Below are positions 44,697-58,239 of a stretch of 64,000 nt of DNA, in pieces. Where the stretch lies: NCBI GenBank assembly GCA_000165345.1, contig CM000436.1:416001-480000 (forward strand), in the 5' to 3' direction. Under the pieces are notes generated by a model that made no database searches, was not told where the DNA came from, and saw only the letters and a list, made by a program, of their open reading frames with translations. The translations under genes and the position numbers were made by a program. Positions within the stretch are counted from its first letter, which is position 1. Every line of letters starts with the position of its first letter.

Positions 44697-45131
44697 TTAA
44701 AGTTGAAATATGAAAGATGGTCGATTAAGGACCAATTCTTGGGATTATGTGTGCTATTTATGGCCAAAACATCCTGTAATTTTGTTTAAGTTAATAATAT
44801 ATGTTGTAACTTGAGACTTTTACAATATGCTTTGGCCAAGATTCAATTTGAAAGATTTAGGTTATTTACAATCCATGGACTATAAATTGTCATATGATTT
44901 TGAACCAATTGTATCGCAAATTGGTCAATTTGTTCATTTTCATTTTGATATTTTGGTCTCATTTTAAGATATTGTTTATAATAAAGGCCTTTCATACATA
45001 TCCATATTACATACACAATTTCCAAGCACTTAATAGAGATCCCAAAATTTTACACATATTTTCTCATAATATTAATCAACTTATATATAATCACAATTCA
45101 ATTTTTATTATTACCTTAATGCTTTTTTTAG

Positions 45132-45212
45132 TTGACTGCATTCTTTGATTGGCTTAATCATGACGAAGTAGCTTTTTCAGAAGAGGAAAATGAAGATGAT
45201 GAAGATTTTTAA
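45132..45212 (+). CDS. Possible terminal exon of the 43251 gene, encoding an acidic/aromatic box (LTAFFDWLNHDEVAFSEEENEDDEDF*)
   Basis: Phase-0 donor GAG|GTAAGT at 44666/44667. Phase-0 acceptor ctttttttag| at 45130-31. 26 stop-free codons ending with an AA-box-like motif typical of W2 domains. The implied intron (465 nt) is long for this genome, so this is speculative. Confidence 0.3.
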   Translation: MTAFFDWLNHDEVAFSEEENEDDEDF

Positions 45213-45668
45213 TTAACTATTAATATAACCACTCCATCTTTCACTCTGTATTAACACATTTATTCCACGTTTAGTAGCTTGATATTTATAATTATACTCT
45301 GCTTCTGATACTATTTATATGTAAAATTGACTTTTATTCAGTTTAATGCTCTTGTGCATTTTTATTGTAATTATTTAAAAAAATTTAATGTGGACGGCTG
45401 ACGTAGCTAAAAAGAGAATTTCTTTTTATATATAATTTTATAAATTGTGTGTATTTTGAATATAAAATAAATTAATTCCAAAATTGGAAAACCAGAGTAA
45501 AATGCATGCAATTTTGAATTTTTAGATTATTGAAAAGTACTAGAAGATTATTAAAGCTGAGTTTGTGTGATCATTAAATTAACCATAATTAGAATCAAGA
45601 CTTAGTGAACTTTCTTTGAATATTTGTGGTAAACTTGATTTAGAATTACTTTTTAAATTAATGTAAAA

Positions 45669-45998
45669 ATGGCAGATCCAAGTGCTATGCTTAATTATAA
45701 TGCTGAACTGATGAAATGCCTGGAAGAATTGAAGGAAAAAAGGGATGAAGTCAACAGGCAAATAAAGAGGGAAGAAGAGGATAAGGCAAAGATCCAGCGT
45801 GAATTAGGGATTCTGAATGAACGTTTGAAAAGAGTATCTGAAAGTCTTCAAAGAAAAACAATCGCAAGAGCTGAATATGATAAGACCATTCAAGAGATTG
45901 AAGGAGCATACACTAAAATCTTGGAATCTTCTCAAACTCTTCTCCATGTGTTAAAGAGAGAATCTGTTAATCTATCCAATCCAAAGAAGAGGGCTTGA
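45669..45998 (+). CDS. SSNA1: SSNA1/NA14/DIP13 coiled-coil microtubule-associated protein
   Basis: Near end-to-end similarity to SSNA1: [96 protein letters not shown] versus human [22 protein letters not shown] ... [23 protein letters not shown]. Confidence 0.85.
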   Translation: [109 protein letters not shown]

Positions 45999-46347
45999 TT
46001 TGAGCATAGTATTAAAAATATATAAAAGAAGGCCAAAAACTGGTGTATCTTCTTTAAGTTTTGTCTTTAGAATCACTTGTAAGAAGGTGGAAAGCTGAAT
46101 TTCTTGTACTATTATGTTTTTCCATCATGATACAAGTATTATACTTTTATGATGAGATTACAATTAGTTGAGTCTTTCTTTTTTCTTGATAAGTCACTTA
46201 TATATAAACAAAATGCTTTTTTTTCGTAATGAAGTGCTTGTTAGATATTTGAAAATTCTAGTAAATAAACAATTGTGGCTTAAAATTAGCTCAAGTTAAG
46301 AATTGGAAAAAGTATAAAATAAAAAAGCTTACCAAAAACTCAAGCTC

Positions 46348-47787
46348 TTAACCCCATGTCTCCTTTAAAATAGTTGATAAATCCTCCTTTGTAACTGTTG
46401 CAGGATTTGTATGAATAGCTTCATCACTTAAAGCTCTAGAAATCATTCTATCCAAGTTCATTTGTAATGTATTGAAATTTAAATTATCAATTACACTCTT
46501 TTTACTAAGAATTGGTATTGTCCTCAATGCATTTTCTTCTGTAACATAGGCTCGAGTTTCTTTATCAGATATTGAAAATGATCCAGATACATGATTGATA
46601 AATTCTTGATTATCTATTTCTATACATTGCGAGAATACTGACAATTTAACACCTATTGGGTCAAACCATCCTTTAGACTTGAAATTAGATAGAGAAGAAT
46701 GAATTGAACTGAGAGAATCTGGAAGTAAGAGAGTCTTTTTTATTTCATCAATTCTGTTTAAAAGTGCCTGTATTTTATTAGAATTTGAATCTTCTGGGTT
46801 ACTTATTCCAAGTTCAACTGAAAGATTTGCAATCAAAGGCCCCACAGTCTGGCTTTTCTTTATATTAAAGTTGAGCACTTGAGTAATCACAATACTGTCA
46901 ATAAGTCCATGAGGAAGTGTAAATACTTCTGAAATACTTCTGGATAAGATTGTTCCAAGACCTACATCAGTTGCTGAAATTGCAACTCCAGATATTGAAG
47001 CAGCCTTATGGATTTCTTGCAATAAACTAATATCCTTCTCAATGACAGCTTTAGTCAAACTATTAAATAAAATTCTTAAAGACTGAATAGCCATACATGA
47101 TGAATAATGGTTTGAAGAATTACTAATGTAAGACTCTAATCCATGAAGAAGAGCTCTCATACCTGTAATAGAAGCCACAAACATTGGAATTGTTAATATG
47201 AAACTCGAGTCTATTACTGATATATCTGGTAAAAACGCCACACCTGAAACTATCATTTGTCTGCCATCATCATTCCTTAAAACCGCCGTAGATGTCACTT
47301 CTGACCCAGAACCACATGTTGTCGGAATGCATACCAACTTCTTTATTAAACTCCCTCTTCTATGTATCATTGCCTTTTTTGAACTCTTTTCCTTATCATT
47401 ATTGTTAGTTCCCATTGCAAGTGAACGCAAAGTCGTATTCGGATCCTCGTATAAAACTCTTAGTACTTTTGCTATATCCATACAATGTCCTCCACCCATC
47501 CCTATTATACAGTCAGGCTTATATGATTTCATCTGCAAAAGAATTGTGCTTAATGCATTCGCATCTGACTCACATAGCTCAGAAAACTCTATTTGAATTC
47601 CATTCTTCTTCACCATCGACTCAACTCTCATCGCCTGACATTTTACTGCTGAAGAAAATACCAATATGGCTCGCCCCACATTTGAATCCAACAAATCTGA
47701 GATTATATCTCTAAAGGAATCCATATTATAGTATATTATTGGTGTAAGAATTAACATTTTTTTTATCTTAACAACTATATTAATCAA
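46348..47787 (-). CDS. Iron-containing alcohol dehydrogenase (Fe-ADH family), monofunctional paralog of the AdhE C-terminal domain
   Basis: Fe-ADH motifs KPDCIIGMGGGHCMDIAKVLRVLYEDP and KLVCIPTTCGSGSEVTSTAVL. Collinear with the ADH half of the adjacent AdhE (KPDCLIGFGGGSPMDASKLVRLMYEHP and RFICIPTTSGTGAEMTPFAVI). Confidence 0.8.
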   Translation of the reverse strand: MINIVVKIKKMLILTPIIYYNMDSFRDIISDLLDSNVGRAILVFSSAVKCQAMRVESMVKKNGIQIEFSELCESDANALSTILLQMKSYKPDCIIGMGGGHCMDIAKVLRVLYEDPNTTLRSLAMGTNNNDKEKSSKKAMIHRRGSLIKKLVCIPTTCGSGSEVTSTAVLRNDDGRQMIVSGVAFLPDISVIDSSFILTIPMFVASITGMRALLHGLESYISNSSNHYSSCMAIQSLRILFNSLTKAVIEKDISLLQEIHKAASISGVAISATDVGLGTILSRSISEVFTLPHGLIDSIVITQVLNFNIKKSQTVGPLIANLSVELGISNPEDSNSNKIQALLNRIDEIKKTLLLPDSLSSIHSSLSNFKSKGWFDPIGVKLSVFSQCIEIDNQEFINHVSGSFSISDKETRAYVTEENALRTIPILSKKSVIDNLNFNTLQMNLDRMISRALSDEAIHTNPATVTKEDLSTILKETWG

Positions 47788-48086
47788 TATTTACCCAAAT
47801 TTTCTCAAAAAAAAAATACTCTTTAGCTCAAAAAAATACTTTAAATGACTATTTTTCACAACAAATTGTCCAACTGCCATTACTGTCAAAAGTGCATGCA
47901 AACATGCAATTTATTCTCTACATTACGTCATTCCACTTAGGCGCCAAACCTTAAGTAAAATCCTATACCGGGTAATATATTGAAAAAAAATTATATTAAT
48001 GGATCAACCAAAAATTGTACAAAAATATTAAAAGTCGTCTCAGATGGTTCCTAAAGTTAACAAATTAGTTTGATGTTTATTAATAC

Positions 48087-48496
48087 TTGGTTATTTATAC
48101 TCTAATTGGGAGTAACATTTTAATAATGACCGAGATTGAGGTAGCTTTGAGTTTTACTTCGTTTTTAATGCTTGTACTTACAAGTAGTATTCCTAATTTG
48201 TACAGATACATTGCATTGCTGTTAATTGAATTATGTTCGTGTATTATTGTTTCCATTCTACTTATTATCAAGCCCAAGTCTAATCAACGTTCTCTCTTAC
48301 CCACTATTGCATTAATTTCATATTCACTTATTAATGGTTTTATTGGAACTATTCTAACTATTTTTACTGCTTTTTTCTTGGGAGCTCACCTTGTTGACTT
48401 TGGAACCATTGTATTGTCTCTTTATTTTGGATTGGTTACTTTTAGAACATGTATATTTACTGGTTTTAAAAGTCTATTAGTTATGATTATTAAAAG
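48087..48496 (+). CDS. Small multi-pass membrane protein, exon 1. The track ORF ends at 48500 on a TAA that overlaps a GTAAGT donor
   Basis: 136 codons, almost entirely hydrophobic helices. ORF terminates ...ATT AAA AG|GTAAGT, i.e. the stop codon is part of a consensus splice donor. Confidence 0.35.
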
Positions 48497-48736
48497 GTAA
48501 GTGTATAAGTATAATGAGGAGAAATAAACAAGAAAAGTATATATTGGTCTCAAATGATTAAAACACTTAAGGGGTTTAAATGAGCTTAATATTTTATTAT
48601 TAAGTGATTTAAAAAAAAGAAATTGAATCTTTTCAATTTTATGATGAGCAAATATATCTACAAGAGAAAAATCCAAGCAAGTCAATTTTTCTCCTTTTTC
48701 TTTTATTCAATAATTTTAACTATTTAAATTATTTAG

Positions 48737-48953
48737 TCCTACTTTAAAGCCAAAAGATAGTAATATTGCTCCTATATTCTATTCTGCCTTATTAGCTTAC
48801 TTTTCTTGTTTTTCATGTATTCTTCAGTCAAACAACAACCTATTAAAATGGCCAAATTTTATACTCTTAGGAGCTGTTTTTGGAAGATTTCTAGGTACAT
48901 TATACAAGCTTTTTACTGGGAAGCCAAATGGTAAAAGCAAATCAAAAGAATAG
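48737..48953 (+). CDS. Possible exon 2 of the 48087 membrane-protein gene (S PTLKPKDSNIAPIFYSALLAYFSCFSCILQSNNNLLKWPNFILLGAVFGRFLGTLYKLFTGKPNGKSKSKE*)
   Basis: Acceptor aattatttag| at 48735-36 restores phase 2 from the donor. 72 stop-free codons encoding two further TM helices and a basic tail. Intron would be 240 nt. Confidence 0.3.
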
Positions 48954-49116
48954 ATCTTGTATGAATTAATTTAGAAGTATTTAGTATTAAGAAAATTATC
49001 AAGTATTTTAATATTTTGTTTATTATTTAGCAACTATTAGTCTTATATTATCTGTACTATTGAAATTTTCCAATTTTGACAATATTAAGTATTTTTAATG
49101 TACTTAATCTCAGTAA

Positions 49117-51714
49117 TTAATGTTCTGGATATCTGACAAATCCAGAATAAGCGTCAATATAGAGTTGTTTAATCTCATTTAAAAGAGGGAATCTTGGATT
49201 AGCTCCCACACATTGATCATCAAGAGCATGGATACTCATAGACTCAACTTTTGACATATAATGTTCTTCCTCTATTCCATGATCTTTAACACACATTGGA
49301 ACTTGTAATGTTTTCTTGAGATTTTGTATTGCTTCAACTAGAATTCTAATATTAATACTCTCTTGATCCAAATTACTATCAAAGCTCTGATTGGACTTGA
49401 AATGCAAGATATCAACAAGCTTTGCATATCTACTCTTTGCTACAGGATACTTGTACTGAGATAGAATGGACTGTTTTGTTGGTCTATTAGATGCATTGTA
49501 AGAAATAATATGTGGTAAAAGTATTGCATTTGCAATTCCATGTGGAATATGCATTTGAGCTCCCAGTTGGTGAGCTAGAGCATGGCAAATTCCAAGAAAA
49601 GCATTTGAGAATGCCATACCAGCAATAGATGAAGCATTGTGTACATATTCTCTTGCCTTGGCATCTGCATTGATAACAGAGTTTGGCAAATGATCGAATA
49701 TAAGTCTCATAGCTTGAATGCAAAGTCCATCAGTGTATTCAGAAGCATAGGTTGCAACAAAAGCTTCAAGGGCATGTGTTAGAGCATCTAAGCCAGTTGC
49801 AGCTGCAAGGAACCTTGGCATAGAAAGAACAAAGTTGGCATCAACAATGGCCATATCAGGAGTAAGCTTGTAAGAAGCAATAGGATATTTGATTCCAGTG
49901 CTGTTATCAGTAATTACAGCAAATGGAGTCATTTCTGCTCCAGTACCAGAAGTAGTAGGAATACAAATAAATCTTTGAATTTTTCCACCGCTGGGAGGTA
50001 GTTTGACAATTCTCTTTCTAATATCCATAAATCTAGTAACAACTTCATTCCATTTGACAGTTGGATGTTCATACATAAGCCTTACAAGCTTGGAAGCGTC
50101 CATAGGAGAGCCTCCTCCAAAACCAATAAGACAATCTGGTTTGCTTACATTTAATCTTTTAACAATTTCCTTGACAGTTTCAACATCAGGTTCAGGAGGG
50201 ACTTCTGCAAACATCTCAGAGGCTACTCCTACAGACTTGAGACCTTCAATAAGATTATCAACAAACCCAAGACTAACCATGACTCTATCAGTAATAATGT
50301 AGGCTTTCTTTAAATTGATTTCTTTGAGATCTTGTAAAGCTTCTTCAAGGCATCCTCTATTGAAATAAATAGAAGGTGGAACCTTAAACCAGGAGATGTG
50401 GTCCCTTCTTTGTACAACTTGCTTGTAATTAAGCAAATGTTTTACACCAATTCCCTCAGCTGTTGAAGTATGGCCCCAGGAACCACATCCCAAAGTCAAA
50501 GAAGGAGTTTGACGGAAGTTAAACATTTCACCCATTGCTCCTTGAGCAGCTGGCATGCAAACTAGAACTCTTCCAGTGGGAATGCTTCTCTGGAACTCAG
50601 TAATTCTGCGTTTTCCTTCATCAGAATTTGGGTCAGTATATATACAAGATGTGTGTCCCAAACCACCAAATTCAACTAAGGCTTTTGCCTTGGAAACACC
50701 ATCATTAAAGTCGCTAGCTCTGATGATTGACAATACAGGACACAACTTTTCGTGAGACAGTTTCTCCCCTCTTCCAATTTCGTTGATTTCAGCAAGAATC
50801 ATAACAGCATCTTTTGGGATATCAATGGATGCCATCTTTGCGATTTCAACTGCACTAATTCCAACAGATTTAGGATTCATATTTCCATTTTCGTCAATTA
50901 ATAAATTCCCAAGTCTCTGGAGCTCATCTTTTGAAGAAATGATATGTACTCCTCTATTTTTGAATCCAGAAATCAACTTATCATATACTGAATCTAGAAC
51001 CACCAAACATTGTTCGGATGCGCAAATTAAACTGTTATCAAATGTTTTGGATAAAATTACTGAGTTCACAACCATTTCCAAATCTGAGAGTTCATCAACT
51101 AATACTGGTGAATTTCCTGCTCCTCCTCCCAAGGCTGGTTTTCCACATGAATAAGCTGCCTTCACCAAAGCCACTGAACCTGTTGCTAGAATGGCACTGA
51201 CAGAGCTATGGTTCATTAAGGAATTACATAAGGAAATACTTGCAACATCGATCCAACCAATACAATCCTCTGGAGCTCCTGCTTCTATTGCTGCATCCCT
51301 GATAATTTTGGCTGCTCTTATGGAGCTTCTAGCAGTTCTTGGATGAGGAGAAAATACTATGCAGTTTCTTGTCTTAAGGGAGATGAGGGATTTGAAGATC
51401 GTTGTAGATGTTGGATTTGTACATGGAGAGATTCCTGCCAAAATTCCCAATGGTTCAGCAACAATATCAATTCCTCCAAATTCATCATGTTCAATTACTC
51501 CTACAGTCTTTGTATTTCTGTACTTATTATAAATATTCTCTGATGCAAAGTGATTCTTTATTATCTTATCCTCTAACAATCCCATTCCACCATCTTCTAT
51601 TGCTAATACTGCCAACTCATATCTTGCACAGTTTGCTGCCAAGGAAGCTCTTTGAAAAATATAATCAACTTGCTCTTGAGAAAGTTTTAAAAAAGCTTTC
51701 TGAGCTACTTCCAC
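49117..51714 (-). CDS. adhE: Bifunctional acetaldehyde-CoA / alcohol dehydrogenase AdhE
   Basis: N-terminal ALDH domain (MEVAQKAFLKLSQEQVDYIFQRASLAANCARYELAVLAIEDGGMG ... ) fused to a C-terminal Fe-ADH domain (GFGGGSPMDASK ... ICIPTTSGTGAEMTPFAV ... HALAHQLGAQMHIPHGIANAILLPHIISYN). 865 aa, the canonical AdhE length. Confidence 0.95.
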   Translation of the reverse strand: MEVAQKAFLKLSQEQVDYIFQRASLAANCARYELAVLAIEDGGMGLLEDKIIKNHFASENIYNKYRNTKTVGVIEHDEFGGIDIVAEPLGILAGISPCTNPTSTTIFKSLISLKTRNCIVFSPHPRTARSSIRAAKIIRDAAIEAGAPEDCIGWIDVASISLCNSLMNHSSVSAILATGSVALVKAAYSCGKPALGGGAGNSPVLVDELSDLEMVVNSVILSKTFDNSLICASEQCLVVLDSVYDKLISGFKNRGVHIISSKDELQRLGNLLIDENGNMNPKSVGISAVEIAKMASIDIPKDAVMILAEINEIGRGEKLSHEKLCPVLSIIRASDFNDGVSKAKALVEFGGLGHTSCIYTDPNSDEGKRRITEFQRSIPTGRVLVCMPAAQGAMGEMFNFRQTPSLTLGCGSWGHTSTAEGIGVKHLLNYKQVVQRRDHISWFKVPPSIYFNRGCLEEALQDLKEINLKKAYIITDRVMVSLGFVDNLIEGLKSVGVASEMFAEVPPEPDVETVKEIVKRLNVSKPDCLIGFGGGSPMDASKLVRLMYEHPTVKWNEVVTRFMDIRKRIVKLPPSGGKIQRFICIPTTSGTGAEMTPFAVITDNSTGIKYPIASYKLTPDMAIVDANFVLSMPRFLAAATGLDALTHALEAFVATYASEYTDGLCIQAMRLIFDHLPNSVINADAKAREYVHNASSIAGMAFSNAFLGICHALAHQLGAQMHIPHGIANAILLPHIISYNASNRPTKQSILSQYKYPVAKSRYAKLVDILHFKSNQSFDSNLDQESINIRILVEAIQNLKKTLQVPMCVKDHGIEEEHYMSKVESMSIHALDDQCVGANPRFPLLNEIKQLYIDAYSGFVRYPEH

Positions 51715-52620
51715 CTTTAATTAGAAGAAAAATATATAAATAATAATCAAATCCAAGTTAATTCATATTTTTGGAGCTAGGAACAATCTGTTCCTCAATT
51801 TTCTCTTACCTTTTTTAATAATTCATCCAAGGACTCAACAGAATCGACCAGCTTTCCAATGCTCTGTGATACCTCAGGAATGTAAGCACTCATATTTGAA
51901 AATCTGGAAAAATAATAAACAGTGTATTTATTTTCTTAATAATTATTTTCCTATAAATTATTCTCTAGCTCTGCTGATTAGTTTATTTACTCATTTTTTT
52001 TAATATCGCATGTAAACTCTACAAAAGTAGGCCGGTAAATACAAAAATTGCATGTAAACAATAAAAATGCATGCAATCCTCGAATTTCTGTCAAATTTTA
52101 AATTATTGAACTTATTTTCGATTCTTATGAATACTATTATTTTTAATGCTTTACTATTCGCCTTTTTCATTTATATACTAATTGATTCAAATACACAACA
52201 ACTTATTCCATTTCTTTAATTCTTCTGACATTGCTAGCTAAAAAAAATTTTGTAAATAACTAAATTTCAAAATAAATAAAATAGCATAATCCTGTAATTA
52301 CCTAGAATTAGTTTCATTAGAACAATACGTTGATGGAATCCTCTATTCAAATCCTTCTATTTACTTTCACATATTTTTTTTTTTACCTATTCGTCATTCA
52401 CAAAAATCCTATACCGGCATTAAATTTAGGCGCCAAAACTAATTATTTTCTCTTTTTCTATTCCATTTCAACATATAATAAGATTAACAAGTTAAAGCCA
52501 ATTTTATTTCTATAGAAATTTGGGGAGTTTTTTTTTGTAAAGTTTCTCCTTAAATTAATTGCTCCCCCTCAACTTTCTACTTTCAGTTTTATTTATACCC
52601 CACAACATGGAAAGGCAATT

Positions 52621-53556
52621 ATGAATAGTGAATGCAAGACTTTAGAAAAAGATATAGGTCTTGCTTATTGTAAAGTACTCTTGGTGGGTGTTGGAGGAAT
52701 TGGAACAGAAATCCTTAGATGTCTGATATTCTCCGGATTTAGACGAATTGATATCGTTGACTATGACTACGTTGAAGTCTCCAATATTTCCAGACAACTA
52801 TTTTTCAACCTTGGAGATGAAGGAAAGTCCAAGGTGCATGTTTTGGCGGCAAACGCAACAAACCACTTCAAGTCAGCAAAAGGATTAGAAATCAAGCCTT
52901 TTCATTCTGACATTTCCGACTTTTTCTCAAAGTTCAATGTGACCCCATCCGACTACAAAATCATTCTTTCTGGTTTGGATAATATTCATGCAAGAAGGAC
53001 ATTGAATGCTATAGTAATGACGCAATCTAGTCCTCAAGCTTATCCAATACTATTAGATAGTGGTACTGAAGGATTTAATGGCCATTCTAGAATCATTATT
53101 CCGGGAGAAACATCCTGCTATGAATGTACAATGGGACTCAACGTCCAAGATACTAACTTTCCACTCTGTGAAATCAAAGAATTCCCTAGAACACCTATTC
53201 ATTGTATAGCATATGCAAATTTTATATATGAGGAAGATGAACAAGACAATGAGGACTTTAAAAATCACAAAATTCTTAAGATTTATCAACTAGCACAAGA
53301 ACATGCAAAATCTTTTGGAATTCAGGGAGTCACTTTAGAATTAACAAAACAAATTATTGGAAATATCTTCCCAACACTTCTTTCTACAAATACAATTATT
53401 GCATCCTCTGTGGTTTCCCAGGCCATTAAGTATCTAAGAGGCTCTGGACAAGCCAAGAACCTTAAAAACTATTTTATGTATTATGGTCAAACAGGTATAT
53501 ATTCATCCTGCTTTGAAATTCACAAAGACGAAAACTGTATTTTTTGTAAGATATAA
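52621..53556 (+). CDS. UBA3: NEDD8-activating enzyme E1 catalytic subunit UBA3, lacking the C-terminal ubiquitin-fold domain
   Basis: CKVLLVGVGGIGTEILRCLIFSGFRRIDIVDYDYVEVSNISRQ ... DSGTEGFNGHSRIIIPGETSCYECTMGLNVQDTNFPLCEIKEFPRTPIHCIAYA ... FGIQGVTLELTKQIIGNIFPTLLSTNTIIASSV aligns with human UBA3 including the catalytic Cys (PMCTIAS vs PLCEIKE). ORF stops 2 residues after the ENCxxC block, where UBA3 normally continues for about 95 aa of UFD. Confidence 0.85.
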   Translation: MNSECKTLEKDIGLAYCKVLLVGVGGIGTEILRCLIFSGFRRIDIVDYDYVEVSNISRQLFFNLGDEGKSKVHVLAANATNHFKSAKGLEIKPFHSDISDFFSKFNVTPSDYKIILSGLDNIHARRTLNAIVMTQSSPQAYPILLDSGTEGFNGHSRIIIPGETSCYECTMGLNVQDTNFPLCEIKEFPRTPIHCIAYANFIYEEDEQDNEDFKNHKILKIYQLAQEHAKSFGIQGVTLELTKQIIGNIFPTLLSTNTIIASSVVSQAIKYLRGSGQAKNLKNYFMYYGQTGIYSSCFEIHKDENCIFCKI

Positions 53557-53718: not shown

Positions 53719-56700
53719 TTAATTGTTCTTTTTTGTTGTATTCACAGGCTCCCAAGATAAAAAGCTTTCAACATTAGCATCTCCACCTTTAGCTACAGAA
53801 GAGTTGAACCACGCTTCTCCAGCATTAAGTCCCCAAGTTGAACTTATATTTCCAATATACTGAGACCTCCCCATTTCTGTGTATAGTCCAGCAATACCTT
53901 TTGATCCTTCAAGCGCTTTTTGAGCTTTAGGAGGTATATATGGGGTTCTAACCTTCTCATCCAAGTAAATGAATCCAGAATACGATGAATTGATCAATTC
54001 GATCGCTAGATCTTTTGAAATACCAAGATTTGTAAGATTCCCTGAAATCCCATCCCATCTATTATTCATTGGTGGTATTGGAGCTCTTCCATCATTTCCA
54101 CTTGAATCTCCAAAATTTCCATTATCTATTTCTGTAGAGTTTATTGTTCCTATTAATGCATAAGGAGCTAATCCTTGGCATGAACATTCAATCACAAATT
54201 GCTTGCTTTCCTGTTTACTTGGAGAAATATTACTTGTACAAAGATCTTCTCTCCAAACTGAGTCACTTAACATTGAACAACCTATATTTGTCATATTTAC
54301 TGGAATCTCAAAAGAAAGAGGAAGTGAAAATGTTACTGTAGGAGTTCCATATGCATAATAATCAATTGAACAAAGATAAAGAGCTCCTCCTCCTATTGGA
54401 ATAGGTCTTGAGACTTTTCTAACAGCATTCTCTATTAACATATTCGAAATATATTTCCTTGGGTAAGTATAACTAGAAATTGTTGCTGATGTATTTGGAC
54501 AACTTCTTGAAGCAAATTCTAGCATTTCTGAATCGTATTCTTCCGGATATGCTTGGAAGTAAATAGATTCAACAGGGGAAAGTTTCTTTATCTCATTAAA
54601 TCTAAAGCCTGAAATTGCCATTCCGTTCAAACTTGTTGATCTTCTCGTAAATACTTCATCTAAAGTAATTACAGAAAGCGAAATACCACTTTCTTTTCCT
54701 TTCCAATCCAAAGAATCTTTATTATAAGTCCAAAATGAAAATCTATTACCCACAGATTCAAGCATATGCGAGATGGTTGACTCTAGATTACTATCTCCAA
54801 GTATTCTACTCCATCCATTGCTTGCAACTAATAGATCCAAAGTCTCTAGAACAAGATTTGAGACACTAGGACTACTGGTACATTCTGCATTCAAAGTAAT
54901 ATTCATCAATATTTCAAAAGGTCTTGTGACATCCAAATTAAGTTTAGGATTTTCGTAGGCAACTTTGTAAATCTTCTTAAGAATATACAGAGACATAAGC
55001 TTGAAAGAAGCAAAGTCATAGCCTTGAGGAATATTCTGGAGTTCAAATGCTGTGGAATAGATCGACTCAAAATAGTTTTTCCATATTAACAAGTTATCTT
55101 TGTTTTCCTCAAAAAGAGCACTCACCAATTGAATTGTTTCTATTGGTGTTGTATAAGCCAATGGATGTGTAACCACAGCTATTGCATCTTCAATCTCTGA
55201 TTGAGAATCTTTAGTCTTCATCAAAACTTTGGAAAATGGACAAGGGAAAGAATTCAACAGACTCAAGTCATTGGAACACCAATGAGAGTAGAAAGAGTCT
55301 TTGAATGGAGGTTGGCAAGGAATATAACAACCAGAAAATGTTACTGTTTGGGCTCTAATGTATACAAACCATTCTTTGCTGGTAGCTGGGAGCCTTAAAG
55401 AGGGTGGAAGCTGAGTCAAAGAATCTCCAAGGAAAATGACTGTGGAATTCTGTCCAATAATTTGCGATGATGATGCGATAATTCCAAAACTTGCAAAACC
55501 TTCATCTTGCTCTGTGTTTGAAAATGCAAGATTGCTAAGAGTGAGGAAAATTGAGTCCCCAATAGAAGCTCCTTTTTCCTCTGGTTGATATAGAGAAAGC
55601 TTTCCAACAGTTGGAGGAAAGTCAACAGCTCCAAATTCTATAGATACAAATTCATTTGTATTGGGTTGTGGATTACTTTGTATTAAGGTTTCATACGAAA
55701 TAAAGGTTGTTCTAGGAGAACTGGATTCTGAAATGATTAATTCATGAATACAATTTGAGAATTTTGAGTTTTGTAGAACTGGATACTTAGTAGTTATGAT
55801 CATAGATCCTCCTAGATTTGAAAAATCAGCAATTGAAATCTTGGAAACACTTGGAGTCCCTGAAACTCTTCTTATTGATTCACAATAAAGATATGCTGAG
55901 ACATAGAATTCTTTGTTAATACTAATTCCAGAAGTTTTCCCTAGAACTACTTTGTGTCTGATCTGTAGAACTTTGTTAAAAGGGATTAAAAATGAATACT
56001 TTGTATTATGAAGATGATCCCAAGCCTTTACTGTTGGGTAAATAATGAAGATCTGTTGAACAGTTGTGGGAATCATTGGTATCATTGGAATTTTGGAACA
56101 ATATTCTGGTGATAGAAAGCCTGAAATTGGAGGAGAAAAGAGCTTAACTGAAATACCCTTTGAAGGACTTGTATAAGAAATAGTATCAGTGAAAATTGTT
56201 ACTGTTATAGCAAGATAGTCAGTAGTCTTAAAAGATGAAGCTTTCAGAGTGGTTACATGTTCTTCTGGAGCAGTATTCACCATTCCAATAAACTGATTCT
56301 GGCTATCTGGAGTGTTTAAGCATGTAACAAATTCATTGTTTAGCTTACATGATGTAATCTCGTCTCTAGGTACTTCAATCATATCTTGCCAAGTATTTGT
56401 GGATGTAGTCTTTTTGGTTTTACACTGCCAAGCTGTTTTGAGTGAGTACATATCTCTTTTCATAGGTACGAATCTAGCGGCTCTACAAGTCATTCCTGAT
56501 CCAGGAGTTGCATAGTTTCCAAAGTTTCTGTTAATATACCTTTCGCTAAACTGATAGAATTCACTTCCAAGAGTAATTGAAGTATCATGATTCACAAAAG
56601 ATGGTAAATTATAGAAGATAAAAGGTTGGTTTGAAGCAGTTGCAATCAAAAGAGAGTGAAGAAGACCGTTTCCAGGGTATATCTTCTTAAATTTTCGTGT

Positions 56701-58239
56701 CTCATCATTTATATCTGATCTAAAGGTTCCTTTGTGAGTATAGCTGACATATTGGATTAGGGATGACAATACAAAAAAGTAACTTATAGGAGATGGAGCT
56801 GAAAGATATTTGATCGGAGGGAGGTAGAACGGGGATTTAAATTGGGTATTTGAATTTCTGAGATGGGTTCCACATAACCCCACACCTGCATGCACACCGG
56901 TATAGGAAGATTTGGGAGAATATGGGAAGGTACCATTATAATAGCATCCTCCAAGAAAATTATTTGAAAATGTGAGATATGTTGAAATAGTGTTTTGGAG
57001 TTGTCCAGGGTAGTTTTTTCCATTTAAGAATGGTCTTTTAGAGAAGTACATGCTAGAGAGTACAGTGTTTCTGGATATAGTAGAGTCATTTTTTGAGTAT
57101 TTTGAAATAAACCTTTTTGGGGGTAAATCTTTAAGGTAATTGATATTGAATGGATTGGAAGAATTATTAGCATAATTCCAAAAAGGGTCCATAGGGTAAT
57201 AGAATAAATAGTTATTTACACAGTTTGTACTACTGTTGGATGGAAGATTAGATGGCATAACCACTCTAATAGGTGAGACACCTAAGGGAATGTTTGTCCA
57301 ACCAAAAGGTACTGCAGAATTATATTCGTTGGTAGTAACATTATTTTGGATTGCAATGAAAGCTCCTTGAGCAGAGTTTATAATAGGGGGTTGGAAACCT
57401 GCAAACCTTTCTTTAGGCTTCCAAATCCCAGATGTTAGGTCAGAATCATATCTTCCATATGAAAAGGTCATGTTAAAGAGATCAACATATGAGTGATCTG
57501 GAGGATCAGATTCTTGGATTGAGCTTCCAGGAAGGACCTCTGGAGGAAGGTCTATTTTATATTTAAATGGTAGAACAACCATATCTGAGAAAGAATTAGC
57601 CAAATTTAGGACACTTGCAACATTAACCCAATTTTCACTATAATAATGTTGCTGGAGCCAGGTAAGGACTGGATCAGGAGAAGGAGTAGTTGAGACACCT
57701 TCTTCCACAATACTCGCAAGTGCATCTCCAATTATAGTTCCTGGTATGAGGAAAGTGAAGTTAGTAGCTGAGGTAGATTGGATCATGGTTGGCTCAAAAT
57801 TATTCAAGTAATCTACAACCATGTTGCAGGCAACATAGTAGCTTGAGGTTTGGTTAACAGAGATGGATCCAAAAGCTGTAGAGATCCAGATTGGGTCAGT
57901 TAAGCCTGCATGATTACATGAGAATGAGATTGGATTACTTTCAAAAACATAGTTAATATTCTTGAGGCTGATTACAATTGGGTACATATAAGAGCAAGGA
58001 GTTAAAATAGCTGGGAATCCGATAGTAGACCATAAAGAAAGGTCGTATCTAGGCTGGTTTGCTAAATCATCAATTTTGATATCCATTCCCCATGCACCTT
58101 GGGCTATTGTACTATTTGGAAACATGGGATTGACAGTGTAGCTTTCTGGCATAAGCTGGGAGAGGACTAGGCTATTTTTTAGCCAGGAAATTTGAATAAG
58201 AAAAATAAGGAGTAGGCATGGGATTCTCCTTAATAGCAT
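53719..58239 (-). CDS. Large secreted protein (1506 aa) with cleavable signal peptide, Cys-containing and rich in N-glycosylation sequons. Lineage-specific extracellular protein
   Basis: N-terminus MLLRRIPCLLLIFLIQISWLKNSLVLSQ is a textbook signal peptide. No internal TM helices. Dozens of NxS/T sequons. No recognised domain. Confidence 0.6.
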   Translation of the reverse strand: MLLRRIPCLLLIFLIQISWLKNSLVLSQLMPESYTVNPMFPNSTIAQGAWGMDIKIDDLANQPRYDLSLWSTIGFPAILTPCSYMYPIVISLKNINYVFESNPISFSCNHAGLTDPIWISTAFGSISVNQTSSYYVACNMVVDYLNNFEPTMIQSTSATNFTFLIPGTIIGDALASIVEEGVSTTPSPDPVLTWLQQHYYSENWVNVASVLNLANSFSDMVVLPFKYKIDLPPEVLPGSSIQESDPPDHSYVDLFNMTFSYGRYDSDLTSGIWKPKERFAGFQPPIINSAQGAFIAIQNNVTTNEYNSAVPFGWTNIPLGVSPIRVVMPSNLPSNSSTNCVNNYLFYYPMDPFWNYANNSSNPFNINYLKDLPPKRFISKYSKNDSTISRNTVLSSMYFSKRPFLNGKNYPGQLQNTISTYLTFSNNFLGGCYYNGTFPYSPKSSYTGVHAGVGLCGTHLRNSNTQFKSPFYLPPIKYLSAPSPISYFFVLSSLIQYVSYTHKGTFRSDINDETRKFKKIYPGNGLLHSLLIATASNQPFIFYNLPSFVNHDTSITLGSEFYQFSERYINRNFGNYATPGSGMTCRAARFVPMKRDMYSLKTAWQCKTKKTTSTNTWQDMIEVPRDEITSCKLNNEFVTCLNTPDSQNQFIGMVNTAPEEHVTTLKASSFKTTDYLAITVTIFTDTISYTSPSKGISVKLFSPPISGFLSPEYCSKIPMIPMIPTTVQQIFIIYPTVKAWDHLHNTKYSFLIPFNKVLQIRHKVVLGKTSGISINKEFYVSAYLYCESIRRVSGTPSVSKISIADFSNLGGSMIITTKYPVLQNSKFSNCIHELIISESSSPRTTFISYETLIQSNPQPNTNEFVSIEFGAVDFPPTVGKLSLYQPEEKGASIGDSIFLTLSNLAFSNTEQDEGFASFGIIASSSQIIGQNSTVIFLGDSLTQLPPSLRLPATSKEWFVYIRAQTVTFSGCYIPCQPPFKDSFYSHWCSNDLSLLNSFPCPFSKVLMKTKDSQSEIEDAIAVVTHPLAYTTPIETIQLVSALFEENKDNLLIWKNYFESIYSTAFELQNIPQGYDFASFKLMSLYILKKIYKVAYENPKLNLDVTRPFEILMNITLNAECTSSPSVSNLVLETLDLLVASNGWSRILGDSNLESTISHMLESVGNRFSFWTYNKDSLDWKGKESGISLSVITLDEVFTRRSTSLNGMAISGFRFNEIKKLSPVESIYFQAYPEEYDSEMLEFASRSCPNTSATISSYTYPRKYISNMLIENAVRKVSRPIPIGGGALYLCSIDYYAYGTPTVTFSLPLSFEIPVNMTNIGCSMLSDSVWREDLCTSNISPSKQESKQFVIECSCQGLAPYALIGTINSTEIDNGNFGDSSGNDGRAPIPPMNNRWDGISGNLTNLGISKDLAIELINSSYSGFIYLDEKVRTPYIPPKAQKALEGSKGIAGLYTEMGRSQYIGNISSTWGLNAGEAWFNSSVAKGGDANVESFLSWEPVNTTKKNN

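Follow-up and report, generated by a model that had tools for sequence, protein, structure and literature searches.

An AdhE-related, alcohol-dehydrogenase-like paralog with an altered metal site near the AdhE gene of Cryptosporidium

Iron-type alcohol dehydrogenases (ADHs) occur as the ADH half of bifunctional AdhE, whose filament assembly uses ADH–ADH contacts, and as monofunctional enzymes. The family also includes the maleylacetate reductases (MAR), where metal-free members carry Arg or Asn in place of Asp at a metal-ligand position that is also changed in the gene treated here (PMC5125639 section 3.7). In Cryptosporidium a bacterial-type monofunctional CpAdh1 has been described whose expression accompanies that of AdhE in late and female stages (PMC11225183, PMC3542205), and Huang et al. 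2004 (Table 2) list a eubacterial transfer, EAK89684, which is cgd8_1700. We infer that CpAdh1 is the same gene. The genes themselves are thus already known; the new and testable point is the function of cgd8_1700, which is probably not the simple ethanol-making enzyme that is usually drawn.

Gene models and conservation of the locus

Our window (the whole 64-kb stretch of DNA analysed, whose coordinates are used throughout) belongs to C. parvum chromosome 8, and its ORF list gives both ORFs on the minus strand. Both are real genes already named in the C. parvum annotation, AdhE as cgd8_1720 and the Fe-ADH-like gene as cgd8_1700. A sequence-only reading had described them as same-strand neighbours, an 865-aa AdhE at 49117–51714 and a 479-aa Fe-ADH at 46348–47787; the ORFs and the shared strand hold, while both lengths and the immediate adjacency have to be revised.

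The 865 codons plus stop are exon 2 of AdhE only (49117..51714, minus strand; Pfam Aldedh, Fe-ADH and ADH_Fe_C). Sequence reading and in silico splicing add a 28-codon exon 1, MSAYIPEVSQSIGKLVDSVESLDELLKK (51810..51893, minus), and a 95-nt GT..AG intron, GTAAGA...TTAAAG (51715..51809, minus). The intron model is supported because the unspliced ORF has no ATG, starts with GTG and begins within the conserved ALDH N-terminus. The spliced protein of 893 aa equals the gene called on an identical public contig and newer C. parvum and C. hominis models. The product is a normal, intact bifunctional AdhE, with the catalytic Cys259 (CASEQ) in its ALDH half and, in its ADH half (about 49120–50397, minus, within exon 2), the GGGSPMD motif and Asp671, His675, His739 and His753; the ADH half alone scores 548 bits against NCBIfam NF010378. 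This AdhE is not an acquisition peculiar to Cryptosporidium: its closest relatives are AdhEs from Vitrella (55%) and from a gregarine (53%).

Two genes downstream on the same strand is cgd8_1700 (46348..47757, minus; Pfam Fe-ADH 1.4e-23, ADH_Fe_C 7.6e-21), which has neither an ALDH domain nor an intron. Starting at the ATG at 47757 it encodes 469 aa plus stop, as in all annotated orthologs, and the protein is identical to C. parvum QOY39924.1. Between the two, on the plus strand, sits a multi-exon PIG-F family gene for a 195-aa membrane protein (48126..48953), called on the identical contig; the window sequence itself shows a hydrophobic ORF and a GTAAGT donor, and the C. andersoni ortholog matches PF06699 PIG-F. 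This gene does not belong to the ADH pair.

Only Cryptosporidium has the cgd8_1700 family: among 1.84 billion representatives searched, bit scores fall from 845 to 199 at the first entry outside it. The paralog was found in all ten orthologous sequences examined, from at least eight named species, at the same position each time, and five species, ranging from C. parvum to C. andersoni, share the AdhE / PIG-F / paralog order. It is under purifying selection and evolves faster than AdhE (dN/dS 0.13–0.15 versus 0.03–0.04). The promoter region of the paralog holds a motif pair, CCGGTATAGGATTTT plus TTTGGCGCCTAA, then GAATGACG (47937..47971, minus), and the same two motifs recur in swapped order in the AdhE / Uba3 intergenic region (52403..52437, minus). 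Each motif occurs only twice in the window, once upstream of each gene, and the chipmunk genotype and C. ubiquitum retain the block upstream of the paralog.

A remodelled active site on an AdhE-like scaffold

The claim that the Fe-ADH is collinear with the ADH half of AdhE was borne out: the two align over 367 columns at 28% identity, with an E-value (3e-50) that chance does not explain. The nearest curated family model and the nearest solved structure are both AdhE. NF010378, the AdhE model, gives the paralog 193–199 bits in three deep lineages, where the runner-up model gives it 105–129; AdhE chains lead the search of solved structures (4.7e-41, versus 2e-14 for FucO), and Foldseek ranks AdhE ADH domains first (TM 0.71/0.82). 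The AlphaFold model of cgd8_1700 is of moderate quality only (pLDDT 72.9, low in residues 148–174). A C-terminal extension of about 100 aa had been proposed, but the final helices line up with the C-terminus of AdhE, and alignments to AdhE and to orthologs place the extra length in an internal insertion of about 72 aa, at roughly residues 353–424 (46486..46701, minus). This insertion is poorly conserved, differs in length by species and has pLDDT below 50 in its central part (residues 370–410), yet contains an invariant G363-W364. A segment of about 12 aa specific to AdhE ('PTKQ...') is missing.

In the dinucleotide-binding motif GGGSP has become GGGHC (codons G88-G89-G90-H91-C92; 47482..47496, minus), a change seen correctly from sequence alone. 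It is invariant in 10 Cryptosporidium orthologs, whereas the GGGS Ser is present in 100% of 73 non-degenerate comparison sequences, six degenerate standalone proteins being left out. The metal and substrate site (46909..47157, minus) was read from AdhE structure alignments and an alignment to 82 family members. R201 stands at the Asp ligand, T269 at a His ligand and R273 at the substrate-side His, while H205 and H283 are kept. In FucO numbering, the orthologs of every species have Asp196 replaced by Arg, His263 by Thr or Ser and His267 by Arg, giving R-H-T/S-R-H where nearly all other family members have D-H-H-H-H. Retention of the metal-binding residues, which the earlier reading had proposed to check, is therefore partial, with two of the four ligands replaced in every species. 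Altogether 15 of 49 family-wide conserved positions are altered; among them are S91H, K167Q and D201R, where the original residue is 100% conserved elsewhere in the family, and the change of the universal Lys to Gln is found in all Cryptosporidium orthologs.

Most of the nucleotide-binding scaffold is kept (GGG, D94, K97, PTTxGxGxE and the adenine-ribose Asp65), and because H205 and H283 are retained the protein may still bind some metal. We regard it as very probable that cgd8_1700 is not a canonical Fe-ADH. Since the active site is remodelled in every species, a role as a canonical iron-dependent acetaldehyde reductase appears unlikely.

Origin of the paralog

We consider cgd8_1700 to be probably derived from AdhE. 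It would go back to an old local duplication, before the Cryptosporidium species diverged, in which the ADH half of an apicomplexan/chrompodellid-type AdhE was copied; the copy would then have evolved fast and changed function. The conserved linkage, the best database matches and the neighbor-joining (NJ) tree all favour such a duplicate, and the conserved AdhE / PIG-F / paralog arrangement makes local duplication the most economical origin. In the NJ tree the paralog joins a standalone protein of Alphamonas edax (P0365) inside the apicomplexan/chrompodellid AdhE clade, with 50% bootstrap. It has 4–6 of 13 states specific to myzozoan AdhEs; among 70 controls, 68 have three or fewer and two have four, the bottom of the paralog range. 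Partial duplication after acquisition, as proposed earlier, thus agrees with collinearity, nearest matches and linkage, but not with a tree position as sister of Cryptosporidium AdhE, which neither NJ (bootstrap 0%) nor maximum likelihood (ML) recovered, nor with the single AdhE-specific conserved residue, of 19, that the paralog retains.

A less probable origin, to which we give about one chance in three, is lateral transfer of a bacterial monofunctional AdhE-like or FucO-like ADH, alone or together with adhE, in which case proximity to AdhE would be a coincidence or a relic of co-transfer. The listing by Huang et al. as a eubacterial candidate agrees with it, as do the missing 12-aa insert, the 18 missing signature residues and the finding of no ALDH remnant in the DNA surrounding cgd8_1700. 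The ADH-domain phylogeny is divided: under ML (Gonnet+G4) the paralog attaches to long branches among the bacterial monofunctional ADHs (P0372, P0382, P0377, P0097 group), 8–20 lnL units above any AdhE position, a preference that persists when only slow sites are used or rates are uncoupled, and RELL gives that category 66–97%. No topology for the paralog was rejected, however (z<1.2), nor any alternative position under full optimisation, where the position sister to Cryptosporidium AdhE stands at -14.5 +/- 15.1 lnL, and at -6.8 +/- 11.6 after Dayhoff-6 recoding. The ML attachment point moreover shifts among unrelated long branches (P0372, P0382, P0062, P0097 group) with site selection and recoding, the pattern expected under long-branch or compositional attraction, and low GARP content is common to the paralog and P0372/P0382. 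Given about 3,900 genes, we roughly put at 0.1% the probability that a gene inserted independently would come to lie no more than two genes from the one homolog it has. The top matches to the paralog in an exhaustive search were eukaryotic AdhEs and AdhE-derived standalone proteins. The family-model score is no proof of descent from a bifunctional gene, because several monofunctional bacterial ADHs also score highest against the AdhE model.

Proposed function and comparison with known systems

Taken as a whole, an old duplicate of the AdhE half, with altered function and no longer a canonical Fe-ADH, is the explanation that we favour by somewhat more than even chances. Such a protein would keep both domains of the fold and a largely intact nucleotide-binding scaffold, with R201, R273 and Thr/Ser standing where the family has the Asp ligand, the substrate-side His and a His ligand; loss of the tetrahedral Fe/Zn site would rule out canonical acetaldehyde reduction. 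The replacement residues are invariant and the gene is under purifying selection, which suggests that the pocket is still used. By analogy with metal-free MARs, which have Arg or Asn at the same Asp position, the likeliest use would be to reduce, with NAD(P)H but no metal, or simply to bind a different, probably anionic, ligand. We give even odds that cgd8_1700 is still catalytic in some form.

That it is purely a binding protein, for instance a regulator that senses NAD(H), or a protein that partners or caps AdhE filaments, we think unlikely. In its favour, five positions that are 96–100% conserved in the family and touch cofactor, metal or substrate are replaced, evolution is faster than in AdhE while still constrained, and the NCBIfam family 'alcohol dehydrogenase-like regulatory protein ErcA' puts a regulatory use of the fold on record. 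An aromatic residue, the invariant Y218, is also kept where E. coli AdhE has F670, a residue with a role in filament contacts according to cryo-EM work, but an aromatic is also common there in monofunctional relatives. Against this reading, the new active-site residues are invariant and do not drift, which points to a pocket selected for ligand binding.

The separate aldehyde-to-ethanol capacity suggested earlier, which metabolic maps also assume as 'ADH1/CpAdh1' reducing acetaldehyde made by pyruvate decarboxylase along a second route beside AdhE, is improbable: the fold with both Pfam domains, purifying selection, the scaffold residues and two His ligands, the promoter motifs common to both genes and the published co-expression speak for it, but the replacements of two metal ligands, the substrate-side His, the GGGS Ser and the universal Lys are fixed across the genus, and Asp to Arg/Asn goes with metal loss in the family (PMC5125639). 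The searchable literature holds no activity report for the protein and no main-text discussion under any identifier, only the table entry EAK89684 in Huang et al.

Among known systems, the ADH domain of AdhE (structures 6SCG, 7DAG and 3ZDR from E. coli, V. cholerae and Geobacillus; Cryptosporidium cgd8_1720) shares with cgd8_1700 the two-domain iron-ADH fold and is collinear with it from the linker motif (..P.IY.N..) to the C-terminal NP..(D/E)..W/Y helix. It differs in its ALDH half, its 'PTKQ..' insert, its signature residues, its intact metal site and GGGS motif, and in having no counterpart of the 72-aa insertion.

FucO (lactaldehyde reductase) and bacterial monofunctional iron ADHs are of similar length, monofunctional and without the AdhE insert, and ML prefers them as neighbours; P0372, for one, is FucO-like with 418 bits. 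FucO models, however, give cgd8_1700 105–129 bits against a cut-off of at least 523, well below the AdhE model, and FucO itself has all four ligands and GGGS.

A precedent comes from degenerate standalone proteins of other alveolates (A. edax EP00386_P002619, that is P0365, and metagenomic P0373 and P0366), which also have a single ADH-type domain and altered metal ligands (N-H-S-H-Q in P0365), and which ML places inside the myzozoan AdhE clade. P0365 and P0373, though not P0366, have lost the AdhE-specific insert. They are 27–31% identical to the paralog, keep 7–18 of the 19 signature residues and have other substitutions at the Asp and last His positions; their orthology with cgd8_1700 is at most tentative, at 50% bootstrap in NJ and no significance in ML.

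The MARs share the change of the first metal ligand from Asp to Arg or Asn, thought to abolish metal binding (PMC5125639), and are active without metal, which shows that the fold can carry out metal-free NAD(P)H-dependent reduction. Their sequences are distant (MAR structures match at 3e-12 to 2e-5, versus 5e-41 for AdhE), and cgd8_1700 also lacks one His ligand and the His proposed to be catalytic in MAR. The resemblance, drawn by analogy, is one of mechanism and not of membership.

Gene models at the AdhE locus

Both genes treated here, cgd8_1720 (AdhE) and its paralog cgd8_1700, are already annotated; the new point is that cgd8_1700, confined to the genus, is an iron-ADH-fold protein depleted of metal ligands. 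The pair is not the simple duplicated fermentation module that the sequence-only reading took it for. The two ORFs of that reading are present, both on the minus strand, the long one with Aldedh, Fe-ADH and ADH_Fe_C domains and the short one with Fe-ADH and ADH_Fe_C only, and the G+C content of the window is 24-38%, as expected.

The 865-aa AdhE exists as an ORF (49117-51714, minus), but its GTG start lies inside the conserved ALDH N-terminus. In silico splicing of a 95-nt GT..AG intron (upstream of this ORF, within 51715-51893, minus strand) joins it to a 5′ exon of 28 codons with an ATG, read from the sequence at 51810-51893 (minus), and yields 893 aa, as in the gene call of the identical contig and in more recent models from C. 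parvum, C. hominis, C. meleagridis and C. canis. A 2024 enzymology and inhibitor study described the gene as lacking introns, and the protein it expressed has 822 aa (PMC11225183); relative to the full spliced form, that recent biochemistry would have used a protein starting at Met72, without the first 71 N-terminal residues of the ALDH domain. The paralog was first read as 479 aa; its start is the ATG at 47757 and its length 469 aa (46348-47757, minus), a product identical to C. parvum QOY39924.1, WKS79421.1 and WRK33921.1, whose gene lies on a 1.34-Mb contig of assembly GCA_031892065.1.

Nor are the two genes adjacent, as had been claimed. Between them, on the opposite strand, lies a multi-exon PIG-F-family gene (48126-48953, plus) for a 195-aa polytopic membrane protein, whose C. 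andersoni ortholog matches Pfam PIG-F; PIG-F is a subunit of GPI-anchor biosynthesis. Flanking genes encode a 109-aa SSNA1-family coiled-coil protein (45669-45998, plus) and a 311-aa Uba3-like ThiF-family E1, cgd8_1730 (52621-53556, plus); further on is a 1506-aa ORF with a signal-peptide-like N-terminus (53719-58239, minus), whose gene call carries no annotation on record. A search of 44700-49200 for an ALDH-domain remnant around the paralog found none.

Architecture, distribution and active site of the paralog

The proposed homology of the short protein to AdhE stands: BLASTP aligns the two with 104/367 identities (28%, E 3e-50), and the match covers the short protein from its N-terminus to about residue 356. 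Its supposed C-terminal extension was rejected: its final helices (..LDRMISRALSDEAIHTNP..W) line up with the end of AdhE (..VESMSIHALDDQCVGANP..Y), and sequence alignments together with the AlphaFold model place the extra residues in an internal insertion at about 353-424, shorter in C. bovis and C. ryanae, with pLDDT below 50 at residues 370-410.

The paralog has the domains of the iron-containing (type III) ADH superfamily (PF00465, 1.4e-23, 83.7 bits for a cut-off of 31.3; PF25137, 7.6e-21), and its best structural match by Foldseek is to AdhE ADH domains (TM 0.71/0.82). It does not carry the signature of the AdhE-type ADH subfamily, a 12-aa insert plus 19 residues conserved in AdhEs and rare in monofunctional relatives: the AdhE-specific segment of about 12 aa after the (Y/F)NA motif is missing, and 1 of the 19 residues is retained. 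It also falls outside the bifunctional AdhEs, having no Aldedh domain and 193 bits to NF010378, of which it matches only model positions 464-828 (the whole-protein cut-off is at least 951 bits). This AdhE model is its best curated family model, at 193-199 bits versus 105-129 for the next. The FucO models give, for three paralog lineages, 105-129 bits (TIGR02638, cut-off 523) and 98-116 bits (NF007911, cut-off 537), which places it outside FucO. Curated family HMMs were rejected as an unbiased classifier because several monofunctional bacterial ADHs also score best against the AdhE model; the HMM result excludes FucO-like ancestry more than it establishes an AdhE one. The product of cgd8_1720 has the Aldedh, Fe-ADH and ADH_Fe_C domains of a bifunctional AdhE, CASEQ with the catalytic Cys at residue 259, and intact GGGSPMD and D671/H675/H739/H753.

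Orthologs of the paralog are found in C. hominis (97% identity), chipmunk genotype I (88%), C. ubiquitum (80%), C. canis (70%), C. felis (62%), C. andersoni (50%), C. bovis (48%) and C. ryanae (46%). A ten-ortholog profile run against 1.84 billion cluster representatives scored the Cryptosporidium cluster at 845 bits and all else at 199 bits or less; the family is genus-restricted in current data. C. parvum, chipmunk genotype I, C. ubiquitum, C. bovis and the gastric species C. andersoni share one gene order: Uba3-like E1, AdhE, PIG-F, paralog, SSNA1. By the Nei-Gojobori method the paralog has a dN/dS of 0.13-0.15 and AdhE, in the same species pairs, one of 0.03-0.04, and replacement sites of the paralog evolve about four times faster; despite this speed it is clearly constrained, under purifying selection.

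Alignments to AdhE structures and to 82 family members gave the active-site residues. The four-ligand Asp-His-His-His site of iron ADHs (Gaona-Lopez et al. 2016, PMC5125639) is present in 74 of the 82 comparison sequences and absent from the paralog, where, in FucO numbering, the metal ligands H200 and H277 are kept as H205 and H283, D196 is replaced by R201 and H263 by T269 (Ser in some species), and H267 on the substrate side is R273. Retention of the metal-binding residues, a check that had been proposed, is thus partial, and R201, H205, T/S269 and H283 are found in 10/10 orthologs. The change of GGGSP to GGGHC had been correctly noticed. The GGGS Ser and the Lys after the TTxGTGSE loop, 100% conserved in 73 non-degenerate comparison sequences, are His (GGGH) and Q167 in the paralog; AdhE next door has canonical residues at all these sites. 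Of the alignment columns, 49 show conservation in at least 85% of 73 other family members and are conserved among the paralogs as well; the paralog keeps 34 of these, mostly Gly/Pro and the PTTxGxGxE loop. The 15 altered columns include S91H, K167Q and D201R (at all three, conservation elsewhere is 100%), T150S (99%) and H273R (96%), and the replacement residues are invariant across the genus. The fold is retained and the gene is under purifying selection, while the metal site, the substrate site and part of the cofactor site have been replaced invariantly.

Origins of AdhE and of the paralog

AdhE relatives were searched with the 893-aa protein, as a query with the ADH domain only gave proteins of at most 737 aa, missing full-length orthologs. 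The closest are the AdhEs of Vitrella (P0244, 55%) and the gregarine Lankesteria (P0250, 53%), ahead of bacterial AdhEs (51-53% over 96-99% of the length), and the Cryptosporidium/Vitrella/Lankesteria clade has 99% NJ support when degenerate sequences are left out. With such nearest relatives, AdhE probably predates the divergence of Cryptosporidium. They favour descent from a common alveolate ancestor over a Cryptosporidium-specific transfer from gut bacteria, the origin given in some reviews.

For the paralog the evidence conflicts, and we conclude that sequence phylogeny does not resolve its origin. We hold it somewhat probable that it is an old local duplicate of the AdhE ADH half, and what tips the balance is linkage: an independent insertion would, by a rough estimate, fall this close to AdhE (two genes or nearer, in a set of about 3,900) with a chance of about 0.1%. 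Its best curated family model and its best structural match, both AdhE, also favour this descent. The best matches in an exhaustive search were AdhEs of eukaryotes (Guillardia/Hanusia, Pycnococcus), together with standalone ADH-like proteins whose ligands are degenerate. In one standalone protein, P0365 of the colpodellid Alphamonas edax, the five active-site positions read N-H-S-H-Q, and ML puts this protein inside the apicomplexan/chrompodellid AdhE clade (RELL 76%); NJ joins the paralog to it with a bootstrap of 50%. The paralog has 4-6 of 13 states specific to that clade; 68/70 controls have three or fewer, and two have four, overlapping the paralog's lower bound.

An independent bacterial origin has precedent in Huang et al. 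2004, whose table lists cgd8_1700 (EAK89684) as an 'alcohol dehydrogenase' of eubacterial transfer. ML placement (Gonnet-derived rate matrix, 4-8 gamma classes) puts the paralog on long bacterial monofunctional ADH branches by 8-20 lnL units, and the retention of just 1 of the 19 AdhE signature residues likewise speaks against descent from AdhE. Slow-site subsets (75-40%), uncoupled paralog rates and Dayhoff-6 recoding all favour such branches too, the chosen one shifting with run, site subset and recoding, and low GARP content is common to the paralog and the favoured sequences. With branch lengths fully optimised, none of the alternatives is rejected (KH-type z at most 1.2 for each): the position sister to Cryptosporidium AdhE is at -14.5 ± 15.1 lnL (-6.8 ± 11.6 with Dayhoff-6 recoding) and that sister to P0365 at -14.0 ± 15.3. 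The phylogeny of the ADH domains, which had been set as the test of duplication, links the paralog to the AdhE clade in NJ and to bacterial monofunctional ADHs in ML; given the unstable branch and the low z, we take it as undecided and not as refuting duplication. A recent duplication of Cryptosporidium AdhE is ruled out by genus-wide synteny, the paralog being already in place in C. andersoni and C. bovis, and its NJ grouping with Cryptosporidium AdhE has 0% bootstrap.

The 5′ intergenic regions of the paralog (47937-47971, minus) and AdhE (52403-52437, minus) share a motif pair. Across the 64-kb window, the exact motifs CCGGTATAGGATTTT and TTTGGCGCCTAA (E2F-like GGCGCC core) have just two copies each, and GAATGACG comes next after each copy of the pair. 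A contiguous duplicated promoter was rejected because the order of the two blocks is swapped between the copies, which makes them separate motif instances. Both regions are bidirectional, with PIG-F or Uba3 on the opposite side; the paralog-side block with its TGCATGCA element is kept in chipmunk genotype and C. ubiquitum and absent in C. bovis and C. andersoni.

Standalone degenerate AdhE-type ADH domains are also encoded by other protists and metagenomes. Besides P0365, two with degenerate metal ligands (P0373, P0366) fall inside the apicomplexan/chrompodellid AdhE clade by ML and two (P0359, P0368) elsewhere on the AdhE backbone; the AdhE insert is kept in P0366 and lost in the other four. 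Catalytic residues may have been lost repeatedly in ADH halves that became separate from AdhE, and CEM34088, a Vitrella Fe-ADH that is divergent and unclassified (PMC5125639), may belong with these proteins.

Proposed function of the paralog

Glycolysis and fermentation sustain Cryptosporidium, and work on AdhE as a drug target is under way. A second, monofunctional 'bacterial-type' ADH appears in published pathway schemes, and authors hope that AdhE inhibitors will act on it as well. This ADH1/CpAdh1, in the papers of one group, would reduce acetaldehyde from pyruvate decarboxylase, and expression together with AdhE in late and female stages is reported for it (PMC11225183, PMC3542205). The texts searched give no gene ID for it. 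The product of cgd8_1700, listed as an 'alcohol dehydrogenase' by Huang et al. 2004, would be the obvious candidate; that table entry was the sole match to the identifiers tried, and the search by identifier returned no main-text discussion of the gene and no mention of the altered ligands. Should cgd8_1700 encode this second ADH, the remodelling of its metal and cofactor site would imply that ethanol-making may be absent, that binding of AdhE inhibitors may differ, and that a genus-specific function is possible.

As the paralog would be unable to hold a tetrahedral Fe/Zn centre, it is very probably not a standard acetaldehyde reductase. R201 and R273, both invariant, place two arginines where the metal pocket used to be and suggest that the ligand is anionic, and the new H91, C92 and C148 are located in two loops that normally clamp the NAD pyrophosphate. 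The protein could be a metal-independent NAD(P)H-dependent reductase in the style of maleylacetate reductase, or a non-catalytic binding protein; we lean slightly towards an activity retained but altered, because the substituted residues do not drift. Our most specific proposal, a tentative one that we think rather unlikely as a whole, is a Cryptosporidium-specific, AdhE-derived 'ex-dehydrogenase' with an arginine-filled metal site, acting either as a metal-free reductase on a substrate other than ethanol or, in response to NAD(H), as a partner of AdhE. Were it true, the branch from pyruvate decarboxylase to ethanol in all Cryptosporidium metabolic maps would be without a dedicated enzyme and would rely on the ADH half of AdhE, making AdhE the single choke point for ethanol fermentation.

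Maleylacetate reductases are active without metal and have Asn or Arg in place of the Asp ligand (Gaona-Lopez et al. 2016, PMC5125639). The paralog has Arg in place of the Asp ligand and matches their structures weakly, at 3e-12 or worse.
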